A stretch of 64,000 nt of DNA, taken from assembly GCA_040218735.1 (NCBI GenBank), contig JAVJQW010000062.1:96001-160000 (forward strand), given 5' to 3'. Of the stretch, positions 46,629 to 63,353 are shown piece after piece. The notes below the pieces were generated by a model, which saw only the letters and a program-made list of their open reading frames with translations, was not told where the DNA came from and made no database searches. Source of the DNA: Deltaproteobacteria bacterium (lineage in GTDB: Bacteria; Myxococcota; Kuafuiibacteriia; Kuafuiibacteriales; Kuafuiibacteriaceae). Position 1 is the first letter of the stretch. Each line of letters opens with the position of its first letter. A program made the translations under genes and the position numbers.

Positions 46629-48470
<1,842 letters not shown>

Positions 48471-48474
48471 CGCG

Positions 48475-48519
48475 AAAAGAAAAAAGGCGCCGTGACCACG
48501 TCCTGTAGGTCACGGCGCC
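48475..48519 (-). terminator. Intrinsic terminator of the 48653-49804 transcript
   Basis: 12-bp stem ggcgccgtgacc/ggtcacggcgcc followed by a U tract on the - strand. Confidence 0.85.
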
Positions 48520-48640
48520 CAAGAGAAACACGAAGCGCGCGCGGGCAGCCACACACCACGAGTTTTGTTCGGACTTCCTGTCCGCGTCGCCCGGCGAGGC
48601 CTCCTGGCCCTGCGCGCGACGTCCCTCCTCCTGGAGGGGA
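48486..48640 (-). ncRNA. 3'-UTR array of four AGGA-loop hairpins (CsrB/Rsm-like CsrA-binding RNA candidate)
   Basis: CCCUCC-AGGA-GGAGGG; GGCC-AGGA-GGCC; CGGAC-AGGAA-GUCCG; terminator apex AC-AGGAC-GU. Confidence 0.6.
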
Positions 48641-48652
48641 TTGAAGCGTTGA

Positions 48653-49804
48653 TTAACGGCCGATCGACTGGATGATGTTCTTGGCCGTCTCGTTGTACTT
48701 GTCGATGATCTGCCGGAGCATGTCGAACATCTGCGAGCGCTTGTCGATGAGGCGCTTGAGCTTCATCGTCTCGACGTCGATGGACGGGCTGGAGCCACCC
48801 CCACCCTTGCCGCCGCCCTTACCGCCGCCTTTGCCGCCGCCCTTTCCACCACCGCTCTGCTGCTGCTGCAGATCGTTGATGTAGTTGGCCATCGCCTCGA
48901 TCTCCTTATCCATCTTCTTCATGATGGCCATGATCAGGAGCGTGACCTTGTCCTCGACGGTAAGGCTCGAGTCGTTGAGGATCGCGGACGTGTCGAGCCC
49001 GTGATCGTTCATGCCGAACGCGCCCTGCGCGGGGTGCGGCGCGCCGTTGCTGTGCGGGCCGCCGGTGTTCCAGTTCCCACCACCGTTCTGCGCGTTGCCC
49101 TGGCCGGGCAGACCGCGGAACCAGTCGGACAGGAGCGACTCGCCACCGATGCCGGAGCCGTTGCCGCTCCCGCTCACATTCCCGCCGCCGAGCAGGTTCG
49201 CGAGCGCGCCCATCATCACCGCGGGGAACGCCATGAACGGCGGCAGGCCCATGCCGGCCGCGGCCTGCGCGAACTGGTCGAGGAACTGCAGCGCCTGGTT
49301 GGTCGCCTGCGAGTGCTGGCCGCCGGCCGGCGCGTAGCCGCGCGGGAACGGGAGGACCGTCATGCGGCCGTCGTTGCGGCCGTCGGGGATGATGTGCCCG
49401 CCGAGCATCATCTCGACCTGCTGACGCGCAAAGGGGTCGTTCGCGAGGAGGCGCTCGAACTGACGCCCCTGCTGGCGGTTCATGATGCCCTCGAAGAAGC
49501 CCTGGCCGGGACGCGCACCAAAGTCGAACGACTGCGGCGGCGCGTACATGCCGGCGGCGGGGCTGCCGGAGTAGGCGTTCGGCGGAATCATCGCGCCCTG
49601 GGCGGGGATGCCTCCGGTCTGGAGGAGGTTCGCGAGCGCGTTGGCACCGAACGAGCCGGCGGCCATCATGAAGCTATCGCGCAGCCCCTGCATGAAGGCC
49701 GGGTTGCCCTGGAACTGCTGCAGCTGATCGAAGAAGCCGTCGACGTTGAAGCCGAGCGCGCGCAGCAGGTGGGAGCCGCCGAGTAGATTCGTGTTCCAGA
49801 CCAT
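48653..49804 (-). CDS. Gly/Gln/Met-rich protein with a C-terminal helical hairpin resembling T3SS filament/needle subunits
   Basis: Strong AAAGGAG RBS; no signal peptide; ...KLKRLIDKRSQMFDMLRQIIDKYNETAKNIIQSIGR*; (GGGK)4 loop. Confidence 0.8.
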   Translation of the reverse strand: MVWNTNLLGGSHLLRALGFNVDGFFDQLQQFQGNPAFMQGLRDSFMMAAGSFGANALANLLQTGGIPAQGAMIPPNAYSGSPAAGMYAPPQSFDFGARPGQGFFEGIMNRQQGRQFERLLANDPFARQQVEMMLGGHIIPDGRNDGRMTVLPFPRGYAPAGGQHSQATNQALQFLDQFAQAAAGMGLPPFMAFPAVMMGALANLLGGGNVSGSGNGSGIGGESLLSDWFRGLPGQGNAQNGGGNWNTGGPHSNGAPHPAQGAFGMNDHGLDTSAILNDSSLTVEDKVTLLIMAIMKKMDKEIEAMANYINDLQQQQSGGGKGGGKGGGKGGGKGGGGSSPSIDVETMKLKRLIDKRSQMFDMLRQIIDKYNETAKNIIQSIGR

Positions 49805-49824
49805 GAGTGTCTCCTTTGCCCTTT

Positions 49825-49848
49825 CGTCGCCCCATCCTGTGAGCGACG
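49825..49848 (-). promoter_or_regulatory. 5'-UTR hairpin with a CsrA-type loop
   Basis: CGUCGCUC-ACAGGAUG-GGGCGACG just upstream of the SD. Confidence 0.6.
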
Positions 49849-49859
49849 CCCCTCTCTAG

Positions 49860-49876
49860 AGCAGGCGCCGTGCCAA
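49860..49876 (-). promoter_or_regulatory. Sigma-54 (-24/-12) promoter
   Basis: TTGGCACGGCGCCTGCT versus consensus TGGCAC-N5-TTGCW. Confidence 0.8.
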
Positions 49877-49972
49877 CAGGCGGAGGGCCCATATCTCGGA
49901 TCGCGCGCCCTCCGTTCACTTGCAGTGCGCACCCGAACAGGTGCAACTCTGCCCACTGCACCCAACTCGTGT

Positions 49973-50800
49973 TCATCCGCGGTGGCGGGTGGAGCGGTCC
50001 TCGTAGTCGGCGCGCGCGGCGTGGTCGGCGTCCCGGAAGAGGCGGTCGACGCCCAGCTTGGCGGCGATGCCCTCCAGGACCCGGCGCGGGAGCAGCGAGG
50101 GCATGGCGGCGATCAAGCGCTGGCTCCTGGGGACGAAGACCTCGATGCGGCGGTTGCGCACCGCGTCGAGGATCGCCGCAGCGACCGCCTCGGGCTCGAC
50201 GGGCGGCGGCCACTGCAGGTCCTTCACCCCCGCGATCAGCTGGGTCCTCACCGGTATGGGGCAGACGTAGCCGAGGTGCACGCCCGTCGCGTCCAGCTCG
50301 AAGCGCACCGCCTCGGTGAGGGCGACGACCGCGTGTTTGGTCGCCGAGTAGACGGCGCCGTACGGGGTCGGGACCTTGCCGGCCATCGATGCCACGTTGA
50401 TCACCGCTCCGCGCCCGCGCCCCTTCATCCGGGGCAGCACGGCGCGCATCCCGTTGAGGACGCCGCGGACGTTCACATCGAGCATCCGTTCGTCGTGGTG
50501 CGCGGGCTGCTCCAAAAACGGGCCGATCGTCATGATCCCCGCGTTGTTGACGAGGACGTCGATCGGGCCGACGTGGGCCTCGACGTCCTCGACGCAGGCC
50601 TCGAACGCCGCCGCGTCGGTGACGTCCAGCCCGCGGACGGGGCTGCCCCCCAGCGCGGCGCCGGCCGCTTCGACCCGGTCACGGTCGCGGTCCGTGAGCA
50701 CGACCTTCGCCCCGGCGTCGACGAACGCGGCCGCCGTCGCCCGCCCAATCCCCTGCGCCGCCCCGGTCACGAGGACGACCTGTCCGCGCACATCCACCAC
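49973..50800 (-). CDS. SDR-family oxidoreductase
   Basis: TGAAQGIG, NNAGI, YSATK. Confidence 0.95.
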   Translation of the reverse strand: MVDVRGQVVLVTGAAQGIGRATAAAFVDAGAKVVLTDRDRDRVEAAGAALGGSPVRGLDVTDAAAFEACVEDVEAHVGPIDVLVNNAGIMTIGPFLEQPAHHDERMLDVNVRGVLNGMRAVLPRMKGRGRGAVINVASMAGKVPTPYGAVYSATKHAVVALTEAVRFELDATGVHLGYVCPIPVRTQLIAGVKDLQWPPPVEPEAVAAAILDAVRNRRIEVFVPRSQRLIAAMPSLLPRRVLEGIAAKLGVDRLFRDADHAARADYEDRSTRHRG

Positions 50801-61289: not shown

Positions 61290-63353
61290 TCAGCGGGAGC
61301 CAAAGATCCGATCGAGGAGACTCTTACGCTGCGCCGCAGGGTCGGCTTCCACGTCCGAGGCTTTCACCTCGTTCTCCCCCTTCGGTACGGTCCCGGTGAA
61401 ACGCGAGCCGCTGTCCTTCGGCGCCTCCTTCGGCGCTTTCGGGCTGCTCTGCGCCTCGGCGGACACGGTCGCGGGTTTCGACGACGCGTCGCCGTTCGAA
61501 CCCTTGCCGGCCTTCTGCTCTTCCTCGCGTCGCTTCCGCCTGGCCTGGCGTTCGGCTTTGAGTCTTTCGAGCATCTCGGCGGACGGGCGACCGGTGAACG
61601 TGGTGTCGCCCTTCGCTTCGATCGCGGGCGCGCTCTTGTCGCTCTTCTCGCTCCGCTCGCCCTTGGCGGCGCCGCGCTCCGACGACTTCGCTTCGCCGTC
61701 CTCGCCGCCGCGACGACGTTTGCGCTTGGACTTCTTCTTCGGGAGCTCCGAGACGGAGACCTCGTTGCTGTCGGCCTGCGCCTCGCGGCGCTTCTTCGTG
61801 CGGCGACGTTTGCGCTGCGAGCGATCCCGACGCCGGTCCTCGCGCGGCGGGAGCTTGTCGGTGATCTCGGCGAGCACCTCGCCCTTCGAGAGGAACGTGA
61901 CCTCGTCCTGGTTGCGCTCCATCTCCGGGCGCGCCTTCACGACGATGCGGCAGTCGTACTCCTTCTCGAGCGCCATCAGCTGCGCGCGGCGCTGGTTGAG
62001 CATGTACTCCGCCGTCTCGCGGTGCGTCGTCACCCTCGCCTCGCCGACGCCGCCCTGCGCGAGCCGCGCCTCGAGGCGACGCACCAGCGACAGCGAGTGC
62101 GACTCGGCGCTCCGACGCCAGCCGGTGCCGCCGCAGGTCTCGCAGCGGTGCTGGAACGCGCGCCGCATCCCCTGACGGATGCGCTGGCGGGTCAGGACAC
62201 ACAGGCCCTTGGAGTTGATGCGCGAGATCTTGTAGCGCGCCTTGTCGTCCTTGGCCGCCTCCGCGAGGACCTTCTCGACCTCGCGTTTGTGCTTCGTCAT
62301 CTCCATGTCGATGAAGTCGATGACGACGATGCCGCCGAGGTCGCGCAACTTGAGTTGACGCGCGATCTCCTCGGCCGCCTCACTGTTCACGGCGAAGACG
62401 GTGTCCTCGTGGCCCCCCTCGCGGGTGTTCTTGCCCGAGTTCACGTCGATGGCGACGAGCGCCTCGGTCTGGTCCACGACGATCGAGCCGCCGCTCGGGA
62501 GCGCCACGCGACGCTCGAACGTGGACTCGATCTGCGCCTCCACGTGGTAGTACGCGAAGATCGGGATCGGGTTCGAGTAGAAGTGCAGCCGGTCCTTGAA
62601 GTCCGGCATCACCTCGTCGAAGTACTCGACCGCGGCGTCGTACTCCTCCTGGGTGTCGATCCAGACCTCGTCGATGTCCTCGTTGAAGAAGTCGCGCAGC
62701 GTGCGCGCGACGAGGTCCGGCTCGGCGTAGAGGATCGACGGAGCCCGCGCGATCTCGGCGGCCTTCGTGACCTTCTCGTACTGCGCCGAGACGGCGTCGA
62801 GGTCCTTCTGGATCCCGACCCGCGTCTGGTTGAGCCCGGCGGTCCGGACGATGAAGCCGCAACCCTCGGGTTTGTTCAGCTTCGACGCCATGGTGCGGAT
62901 CCGCTTACGCACCTTGTCGTCCTCGATCTTGCGCGAGATGCCACCGGCGTCGCTGCCGGGCATCAGCACGGTGTACCGACCGGCCAGCGACAGGTACGTC
63001 GTGAGCGTCACGCCCTTGTCGCCGATGGCGTCCTTGGCGACCTGGACGACGATGTCCTGGCCGCGCCGCACCACGTCCGTGATGCGCGGCGACTCCTTGG
63101 CGGACCAGCGGCGATAGTATTGGTCGGGCTTGATCTCCGAGAACGGGAGGAAGCCCTGCTTGTGGGAGCCGATGTCGACGAAAGCGGCCTCGAGGCTGCC
63201 TTCGACGTTGTGGACGACACCTTTGTAGATGTTGCCCTTCAGTGTGCTCGTTTCGGACGCTTCGATGTCGAGCTCGGCGAGCTCACCATCCTCCACCACG
63301 GCGATGCGCAGCTCGTTTTGAGCTGTCGCGTTGATCAACATTTTGATGGTCAT
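61290..63353 (-). CDS. rne: Ribonuclease E/G family
   Basis: MLINAT, KGNIYKG, AAFVDIG, IDVNSG, RDLGGIVVIDFIDM, CETCGGTG zinc link, Arg-rich tail. Confidence 0.95.
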   Translation of the reverse strand: MTIKMLINATAQNELRIAVVEDGELAELDIEASETSTLKGNIYKGVVHNVEGSLEAAFVDIGSHKQGFLPFSEIKPDQYYRRWSAKESPRITDVVRRGQDIVVQVAKDAIGDKGVTLTTYLSLAGRYTVLMPGSDAGGISRKIEDDKVRKRIRTMASKLNKPEGCGFIVRTAGLNQTRVGIQKDLDAVSAQYEKVTKAAEIARAPSILYAEPDLVARTLRDFFNEDIDEVWIDTQEEYDAAVEYFDEVMPDFKDRLHFYSNPIPIFAYYHVEAQIESTFERRVALPSGGSIVVDQTEALVAIDVNSGKNTREGGHEDTVFAVNSEAAEEIARQLKLRDLGGIVVIDFIDMEMTKHKREVEKVLAEAAKDDKARYKISRINSKGLCVLTRQRIRQGMRRAFQHRCETCGGTGWRRSAESHSLSLVRRLEARLAQGGVGEARVTTHRETAEYMLNQRRAQLMALEKEYDCRIVVKARPEMERNQDEVTFLSKGEVLAEITDKLPPREDRRRDRSQRKRRRTKKRREAQADSNEVSVSELPKKKSKRKRRRGGEDGEAKSSERGAAKGERSEKSDKSAPAIEAKGDTTFTGRPSAEMLERLKAERQARRKRREEEQKAGKGSNGDASSKPATVSAEAQSSPKAPKEAPKDSGSRFTGTVPKGENEVKASDVEADPAAQRKSLLDRIFGSR

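Follow-up and report, generated by a model that had tools for sequence, protein, structure and literature searches.

We analysed a window of 64,000 nucleotides (nt) from the genome of an uncultured deltaproteobacterium of the Myxococcota family Kuafuiibacteriaceae (GenBank assembly GCA_040218735.1, contig JAVJQW010000062.1, positions 96,001 to 160,000; coordinates are those of the window unless a contig is named). On the minus strand of this window, the stretch at 48485-48638 is the 3′ untranslated region (UTR) belonging to an open reading frame (ORF) at 48653-49804 that encodes a 383-aa protein. As the initial annotation of this DNA had placed it, the stretch lies 3′ of that ORF and is closed by a strong intrinsic terminator; it lies between the stop codon and an ABC exporter gene that begins just downstream (46629-48470). 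Four of its hairpins present GGA in the apical loop. With a probability of roughly 45%, we propose that this UTR binds CsrA and makes an mRNA that would itself be sigma54-driven and CsrA-repressed a titrator of CsrA, in the manner of RsmW of Pseudomonas. The source genome (G000) has 11.6 Mb and is 96% complete; it was compared, among others, with a genome of the same genus (G001, genus g1) and two of a further genus (G015 and G007, genus g7).

Fold of the 3′ UTR and accessibility of its GGA loops

The minimum free energy (MFE) fold of positions 48470-48660 has an energy of -93.7 kcal/mol (z = -4.15), and none of 200 shuffled sequences was equally stable. It consists of five hairpins, four with GGA at the apex and one without. 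The apical loops of the four, namely hairpins 1 to 3 and the terminator, are AGGA (48632-48629), AGGA (48605-48602), AGGAA (48579-48575) and AGGAC (48504-48500). The fold thus reproduced exactly the loop coordinates of the initial annotation, which had described AGGA apexes on four consecutive minus-strand stems; the stems are not consecutive, however, as the hairpin without GGA (48562-48526) separates hairpin 3 from the terminator. All four GGA triplets were predicted to be unpaired with a probability of 0.98-1.0, whether the UTR was folded alone or together with 145 or 345 nt of the upstream coding sequence (CDS). Sequestration of the GGAs in stems, the outcome that had been named as speaking against a Csr-type RNA, was therefore not observed.

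The four loops have the heptamer CAGGANG in common (CAGGAGG, CAGGAGG, CAGGAAG and CAGGACG) and fit the recognition context of CsrA/RsmE; the initial annotation had called the terminator apex close to the CsrA consensus. CAGGANG also matches the repeat of CsrB. Successive loop GGAs are 27, 26 and 75 nt apart, and four of the seven GGA triplets in the 175-nt UTR are located in apical loops. The terminator stem (15 bp, bulged) occupies 48520-48485 and is followed by six U. A GGA in the loop is rare among terminator-like hairpins of this genome, occurring in just 4 of the 53 of a strict genome-wide set.

Uniqueness of the loop cluster in the genome

To compare the cluster with chance expectation, we used dinucleotide shuffles of the 220-nt UTR, which gave a mean of 0.15 GGA loops; four loops were reached in none of 100 shuffles. 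The heptamer CAGGANG occurs 9657 times on both strands of the genome and forms 22 clusters of at least three copies within 170 nt, two of them with four copies. The present locus is the only one of the 22 in which every motif (4/4) resides in an apical loop, the other 21 having zero to two motifs in loops. Moreover, 20 of these 21 showed a codon periodicity of at least 0.30, and the value of 0.12 at this locus was the lowest of all. Judged by these two tests, the cluster is beyond chance; scans for bare GGA or AGGA gave the opposite answer and are weighed below, so that the enrichment tests conflict.

A CsrA-type leader and a csrA-fliW pair

Upstream of the same ORF lie a putative sigma54-type promoter and, in the leader, two candidate CsrA sites, a hairpin with CAGGAUG in its loop and the Shine-Dalgarno (SD) sequence (Table 1). 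Of the 12 family members examined, 8 have the pattern TGGYNN-N5-YTGC at a distance of 57-91 nt before the start codon. A scan of the minus strand at 48300-50050 for sigma70-type promoters, to which it was confined, found none. The GGA of the leader hairpin and that of the SD are about 22 nt apart, a spacing suited to one CsrA dimer, and this predicted two-site arrangement is the classic layout of CsrA-repressed mRNAs of the hag/flaA type. Among 14 family leaders, six have a GGA-apex hairpin in the MFE fold (1.9 expected from shuffles), 13 have GGA in the SD window (3.9 expected, although SDs hold GGA for ribosomal reasons too), and five combine both (0.6 expected). In the leaders of the true flagellin genes, taken as a positive control, the SDs were rich in GGA and a single small hairpin with ACGGAC was seen, which is suggestive only. 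Besides the present gene, the family members with the -24/-12 pattern are those of loci L004, L007, L035, L036, L048, L052 and L054, where it stands at equivalent positions.

The genome contains a single csrA (PF02599, 73.4 bits; 78 aa; contig C23 near 367.5 kb), whose ORF overlaps fliW (PF02623, 87.3 bits), and RNase E/G is present. CsrA is found in G001, G007 and G015 as well, and of 19 relatives from the same family (f1), 16 have CsrA, 17 FliW, 16 flagellin (Flagellin_C) and 14 the 383-aa protein family. The initial annotation had overlooked both the pairing of csrA with fliW and the CsrA-type leader. Taken together, these two features make a dual-function mRNA, or an action of the loops in cis, no less plausible than a CsrB-like small RNA (sRNA) that is set free.

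Immediately after csrA-fliW lies a gene for a protein with an RsbRD_N-type (stressosome-like) N-terminal domain (L001:2227-2736, plus strand), and an aspartokinase gene lies upstream. These neighbours place csrA-fliW outside any flagellar operon in this genome.

Conservation and possible transcription of the UTR

DNA searches recovered the whole UTR only in G001. The UTR core is 91% identical between the two genomes (146/160), compared with 68% for the four-fold degenerate sites in the two genes on either side (129/175 and 171/266, pooled 300/441; binomial p = 2.5e-12). This difference indicates, at the sequence level, that the UTR is under purifying selection. All four loops are kept in G001, where a fifth GGA hairpin has been added upstream. 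The inner hairpin of hairpin 2 is identical and its outer stem carries indels, the loop of hairpin 3 reads AGGAU with GGA retained, and the terminator loop differs at three positions with CAGGA intact.

The orthologues in genus g7 (G015 and G007) have 3′ UTRs that cannot be aligned with the G000 UTR and hold three and two to three GGA-apex hairpins, respectively. Their loops read CAGGAAG/CAGGACG and ACAGGAUG/ACAGGACG, and their terminators have different stems with GGA at the apex in both. Counts of GGA-apex hairpins in 48 distinct 3′ UTRs of the family were bimodal: 41 had none, three had one and four had two to five. In one of the three single-hairpin UTRs (L075) the hairpin is the terminator, with the apex CAGGAAG.

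Further material for covariation was sought in metagenomes, where the scan yielded no close orthologue that could be used. Natural DNA variants from three runs showed one difference, outside the stems; they were uninformative, as divergence in the CDS amounts to no more than about 1%. A mobile repeat was rejected as the source of the element: the UTR is single-copy in G000, and the other three DNA matches within the genome fall in paralogues, in the coding sequence for their conserved C terminus.

A contig of 138 nt from one metatranscriptome run spans 48555-48689 and derives from a relative that is about 93% identical. It runs from the CDS through the stop codon into hairpins 1-3 with unchanged GGA loops. 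This contig, the only RNA evidence for the UTR, has a depth of 3 and carries no strand information, and DNA carry-over is possible. Run X20 had no RNA contig over 48400-48554, which says nothing on transcript ends, since assembled contigs cannot show the ends of an RNA.

Comparison with known CsrA-binding RNAs

The initial annotation had likened the element to CsrB and RsmY. At Rfam gathering thresholds no member of clan CL00106 (CsrB, CsrC, RsmX/Y/Z, RsmW) was found anywhere in the window, and membership was thus not borne out; the best match to the UTR was RsmW, with 25.7 bits against a gathering threshold of 52 (E = 0.058). The match covered the RsmW model (RF02809) over its full length, 1-124. 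Traits of the clan are nevertheless present, namely several GGA motifs with a subset in apical loops and a Rho-independent terminator at the 3′ end. By analogy of layout, RsmW appears to be the closest functional analogue, outside whose family the UTR falls.

RsmW is an RsmA-binding RNA derived from a 3′ UTR, with seven GGA motifs, three of them on outer stem-loops; it is co-transcribed with PA4570, with no terminator between the two and a terminator of its own at the end (PMC4950607). It is cut from the pa4570 mRNA, apparently by RNase E (PMC4950607; bioRxiv 10.64898/2026.09.03.749296). The present UTR resembles RsmW of Pseudomonas aeruginosa in its position within a 3′ UTR, in having several GGA motifs with a subset on loops, and in its terminator, in addition to the Rfam ranking. 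It differs in lacking detectable homology at the above score and in its host, a myxococcote with a FliW-paired CsrA instead of a gammaproteobacterium of the Gac/Rsm type. The upstream gene is small in P. aeruginosa, whereas here it encodes a 383-aa, probably type III secretion system (T3SS)-associated protein and has a CsrA-type leader.

The flaA mRNA of Campylobacter jejuni offers a second parallel, as it is both a target and an antagonist (titrator) of CsrA in a FliW-type system (PMC4894983). The likeness consists of a FliW-type CsrA without canonical sponge sRNAs and an mRNA with GGA apical loops for a (here putative) exported structural protein; the spacing of the leader sites is likewise close, about 21 nt in flaA (PMC4894983). 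The titrating sites of flaA are two leader hairpins, whereas here four extra sites lie in the 3′ UTR, and the 383-aa protein is unlike flagellin, the true flagellin genes being elsewhere in the genome. With CsrB/CsrC and RsmX/Y/Z the UTR shares repeated GGA loops on hairpins and a terminator, but those RNAs have genes of their own, with promoters that depend on GacA/UvrY, and their sites are far more numerous. According to a review, Gammaproteobacteria lack fliW, whose occurrence is anti-correlated with that of BarA-UvrY, the drivers of Csr sRNAs (PMC7652899). Bacillus subtilis hag resembles the present system in its adjacent csrA-fliW and in a leader with an upstream GGA hairpin and a site over the SD (PMC7652899). 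Unlike in the hag/flaA type, where the regulated gene encodes flagellin, the FliW partner, the gene here is no flagellin gene. We know of no 3′ UTR sites described for hag. Nor did the literature searched, with subscription journals outside its coverage, contain a Csr RNA for Myxococcota, in agreement with the initial annotation; a myxobacterial paper concerns cittilin, an inhibitor of the CsrA of other bacteria.

Proposed mechanism and its alternatives

In the mechanism that we propose, the four CAGGANG apical loops would hold about two CsrA dimers. Once sigma54 turns the gene on, the UTR would soak up the product of the single csrA of the genome, and this capture would ease repression of the mRNA's own translation and of other targets, such as flagellin and the paralogous T3SS-associated genes. 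The titrator could be the whole mRNA or, as for RsmW in Pseudomonas, a terminator-protected 3′ fragment that is left after decay of the CDS.

Several observations weigh against this proposal. Binding of CsrA, its titration and any processing are deduced from sequence features, and the RsmW score is below threshold. Four sites are a small capacity beside the classic sponges. The loops of hairpins 1 and 2 are tetraloops, AGGA, with the C and G on either side base-paired; judging by CsrA/RsmE-RNA structures, such loops may suit binding less than penta- or hexaloops. The comparative support comes from two closely related pairs of genomes. In the g1 pair the stems are identical and there are no compensatory pairs; in the g7 pair a single G·U to G-C change is all the compensatory signal. 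The argument of the initial annotation that selection acts on the loops and not on the stems held only in part: GGA is kept while other loop bases change, but about 50 nt that are 100% identical between G000 and G001, exceeding the GGA hairpins, form the non-GGA hairpin and the linker before the terminator, and so selection reaches beyond the loops. Furthermore, the multi-site feature is missing from 44 of the 48 family 3′ UTRs, among them those of the best orthologues in G004, G008 and G011, although CsrA is present there. The multi-site UTR is therefore dispensable for the gene and, by this comparison, looks like a lineage-specific elaboration that the gene does not require.

The genome-wide scans point in the same direction. 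A strict hairpin scan of the 11.6 Mb gave 72 AGGA-apex clusters (at least three in 170 nt), compared with 8-322 for nine control tetramers. A fold-based scan covered 3.08 Mb of non-coding sequence, in segments padded by 100 nt because the codon-periodicity mask covered just part of the UTR. It gave 44 loci with at least three GGA loops and five with at least four, two of the latter being tandem repeats. Four control trinucleotides gave 12-107 and 4-8 loci, respectively, as estimates scaled up from samples of 798-934 candidates each. Both scans scored the present locus as 3, owing to the bulged terminator and window clipping. A loose scan (stem of at least 4, loop 4-9, bare GGA) returned thousands of clusters for any motif and was uninformative. 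The search for clustered GGA loops that had been proposed with the initial annotation thus revealed no genome-wide excess over control motifs. As GGA and AGGA clusters are no commoner than the controls, clusters of CsrA-type loops do not characterise this genome in general, and any one genome should contain a few four-loop clusters of one trinucleotide or another.

The first alternative is that the loops do bind CsrA but act in cis and not as a decoy. CsrA could then stabilise the mRNA against 3′-5′ or RNase E decay, bridge to the leader and tighten repression, or affect read-through into the ABC gene. Such a role would suit the presence of leader sites on the same mRNA, a capacity of about two dimers, which fits local better than global action, and the CsrA-type loop at the terminator apex that recurs in orthologues. 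It would also suit the ABC gene directly downstream. Next to the orthologue in L003, L007, L020 and L075 there is likewise an ABC-type gene downstream, so that the pair is syntenic, and in G011 (L020) a gap of about 50 nt that holds no terminator separates the two, which suggests an ancestral operon. In Pseudomonas, RsmA alters the levels of the PA4570-rsmW co-transcript (PMC4950607). The same gene pair occurs without the sites in L007, L020 and L060, which speaks against a cis role in this arrangement. Likewise, to our knowledge, binding at a terminator apex has no known effect on intrinsic termination. On balance we regard action in cis as somewhat unlikely.

Alternatively, the UTR could be a conserved structured 3′ end that works independently of CsrA and whose GGA loops are incidental: a set of protective stem-loops with a terminator, a base-pairing sRNA seeded by the pyrimidine-rich linker, or a platform for another protein. 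The location of the best-conserved 50 nt, outside the GGA hairpins, favours this explanation, and 3′-UTR-derived sRNAs usually carry their seed at the position of the linker. It is also in line with the lack of enrichment of GGA-loop clusters genome-wide and with their absence from most family UTRs. It leaves unexplained, however, why CAGGANG occupies all four loops at the sole such locus of the genome, why GGA persists amid loop changes, why the g7 UTRs place GGA apexes on unrelated stems and why the leader is of the CsrA type; we consider it unlikely. One specific form, pairing of the linker with the SD of its own mRNA, was rejected, as the duplex energy in G000 was -14.4 kcal/mol compared with a shuffle mean of -14.1 kcal/mol (45% of shuffles as good) and G001 was worse than its shuffles.

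Finally, SD-like ribosome-binding decoys or stabilisers (a perfect AGGAGG is present in both hairpin 1 and hairpin 2), or a chance product of GC-rich sequence in an 11.6-Mb genome that gives a handful of clusters of at least four loops for any trinucleotide, are very unlikely, as CAGGAAG of hairpin 3 and CAGGACG of the terminator are poor SDs, which leaves CAGGANG and not an SD as the shared feature, and as the local shuffles, the purifying selection and the uniqueness test counter chance.

Significance of a proposed CsrA-binding 3′ UTR

If CsrA titration by this UTR is real, the tentative picture is of an RsmW-type decoy embedded in a 3′ UTR and joined with a flaA-type dual-function mRNA in a FliW-bearing myxobacterium. 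Capture of CsrA by a 3′ UTR is a design so far demonstrated only in Pseudomonas-type bacteria, and the RsmW principle would thus extend beyond them. Gammaproteobacteria are the group in which RNA decoys of CsrA are established, in dependence on BarA/UvrY-type systems, and bacteria with FliW are generally thought to be without them, the flaA leader being the one documented mRNA titrator (PMC4894983; PMC7652899). RNA-based titration of CsrA would then have arisen independently in a lineage of deltaproteobacterial type, and CsrA would be tied to a non-flagellar, T3SS-associated gene family.

A bolder version, which we hold to be quite improbable, is that the mRNA of a T3SS-associated, non-flagellar protein carries its own CsrA sponge. 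How much CsrA is free would then be set by sigma54-driven transcription of this one mRNA, which would cross-couple flagellin synthesis and an injectisome-like apparatus. The UTR, protected by its terminator, would remain as a Csr-type decoy RNA, the first in a FliW-type system outside the Gammaproteobacteria. RNA and protein antagonists of CsrA would, in that case, coexist in one cell. With an element of 175 nt and a CsrA of 78 aa, the central claim is open to direct in vitro work even though the host is uncultured.

Features of the locus

Table 1. Features of the minus strand around the 3′ UTR, in the order of transcription; energies are those of single hairpins folded alone.
Feature	Positions	Strand	Sequence	Energy (kcal/mol)	Remarks
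Putative sigma54-type -24/-12 element	49860..49875	-	TGGCAC-N5-CTGCT		71 nt before the start codon; assigned by consensus
Leader hairpin	49825..49848	-	CGUCGC-UCACAGGAUGGG-GCGACG; loop CAGGAUG (49839-49833)		candidate CsrA site 1; present in the MFE fold of the leader
Shine-Dalgarno sequence	49811..49817	-	AAAGGAG		includes GGA; candidate CsrA site 2
CDS of the 383-aa protein (P0001)	48653..49804	-			Gly/Lys repeats, hyper-conserved C-terminal helical hairpin; Myxococcota-restricted family
Hairpin 1	48623..48638	-	CCCUCC-AGGA-GGAGGG; motif CAGGAGG	-11.8	P unpaired 1.0; identical in G001
Hairpin 2	48586..48620	-	compound stem, inner GGGCC-AGGA-GGCCU (48610-48597); motif CAGGAGG	-14.3	
Hairpin 3	48570..48584	-	CGGAC-AGGAA-GUCCG; motif CAGGAAG	-7.4	z = -3.34
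Hairpin without GGA, followed by pyrimidine-rich single-stranded linker	48526..48562 (linker to 48521)	-	linker CUUCGUGUUUCUCUU		most conserved part of the UTR
Terminator	48475..48520	-	13 bp + bulge + 2 bp; loop AGGAC (CAGGACG 48505-48499), then UUUUUUCUUUU	-28.8	z = -6.45
ABC exporter gene	46629..48470	-			ABC_tran domain; AUG at 48470, about 5 nt past the U-rich tract

The 383-aa protein had no match in Pfam and NCBIfam searches and belongs to a large multi-copy family that is annotated as hypothetical throughout. Nearly all family matches are in Myxococcota metagenome-assembled genomes (MAGs), with a few partial ones in MAGs labelled otherwise. The C-terminal 45 residues (PSIDVETMKLKR.IDKR.QMFDMLRQIIDKYNETAKN.IQSIGR) are about 85-100% identical across genera, compared with about 40-60% for the remainder. 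Three paralogues are encoded in the source genome (C23:321088-322086, C50:50721-51599 and C14:38633-39823). One of them sits amid FlhB/SctU, two TPR (chaperone-like) proteins and FHIPEP/SctV, and this position next to TPR genes in an FlhB/FHIPEP export-gate cluster suggests a needle, filament or translocator-like substrate of a T3SS. Leads from Atlas pointed to clusters of T3SS needle, NolX and effector proteins but were weak, all below 0.9. The protein is thus probably a T3SS-associated exported protein, as judged from its family and gene context. A sequence search of the PDB returned no match, and Foldseek none at E ≤ 0.001 (model mean pLDDT, the predicted local distance difference test, 66). 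The idea of a flagellin-like protein was discarded, as the family profile, compared by hhalign with the flagellin of this genome, gave 0.1% probability and there was no Flagellin Pfam match.

Myxococcota are known for gliding motility, and flagellins are unusual there. The genome nonetheless has two true flagellins, which begin with MALVINTNISALRAQ... and MAMTINTNIMSLRAQ..., as well as seven FHIPEP (FlhA/SctV) matches, six of them full-length. These genes lie at C41:351753-356766, at C23:323241-325271 and at another five loci with FHIPEP (L022-L031).

At 48468-48485 on the minus strand, no recognisable SD precedes the start of the ABC exporter ORF. An attenuator may have been inserted into an operon of this gene and its upstream neighbour, or the ABC start may be misannotated. 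Farther away, at 62181-62990 on the minus strand (G000:C18:158181-158990), lies one of the two RNase E/G genes of the genome.

The scans for GGA loops yielded two kinds of further loci. Two tandem arrays, at C58:37496-37745 and C29:57302-57548 (both plus strand), were false positives; in one, a GGCGGGAAGGCC-type 12-mer is repeated about 12 times, and the other is a GGACTCGGAATC-type repeat that is probably coding. A non-coding stretch at C28:71660-71860 (plus strand; L066:3161-3361) contains three serial AGGA-apex hairpins, GAGCUCG-AGGA-CGAGCUC, GCC-AGGA-GGC and CGCAG-AGGA-CUGCG. It lies upstream of an unrelated gene of the SGL family (SMP-30/gluconolactonase-like, PF08450) and is a candidate for another CsrA-binding leader.

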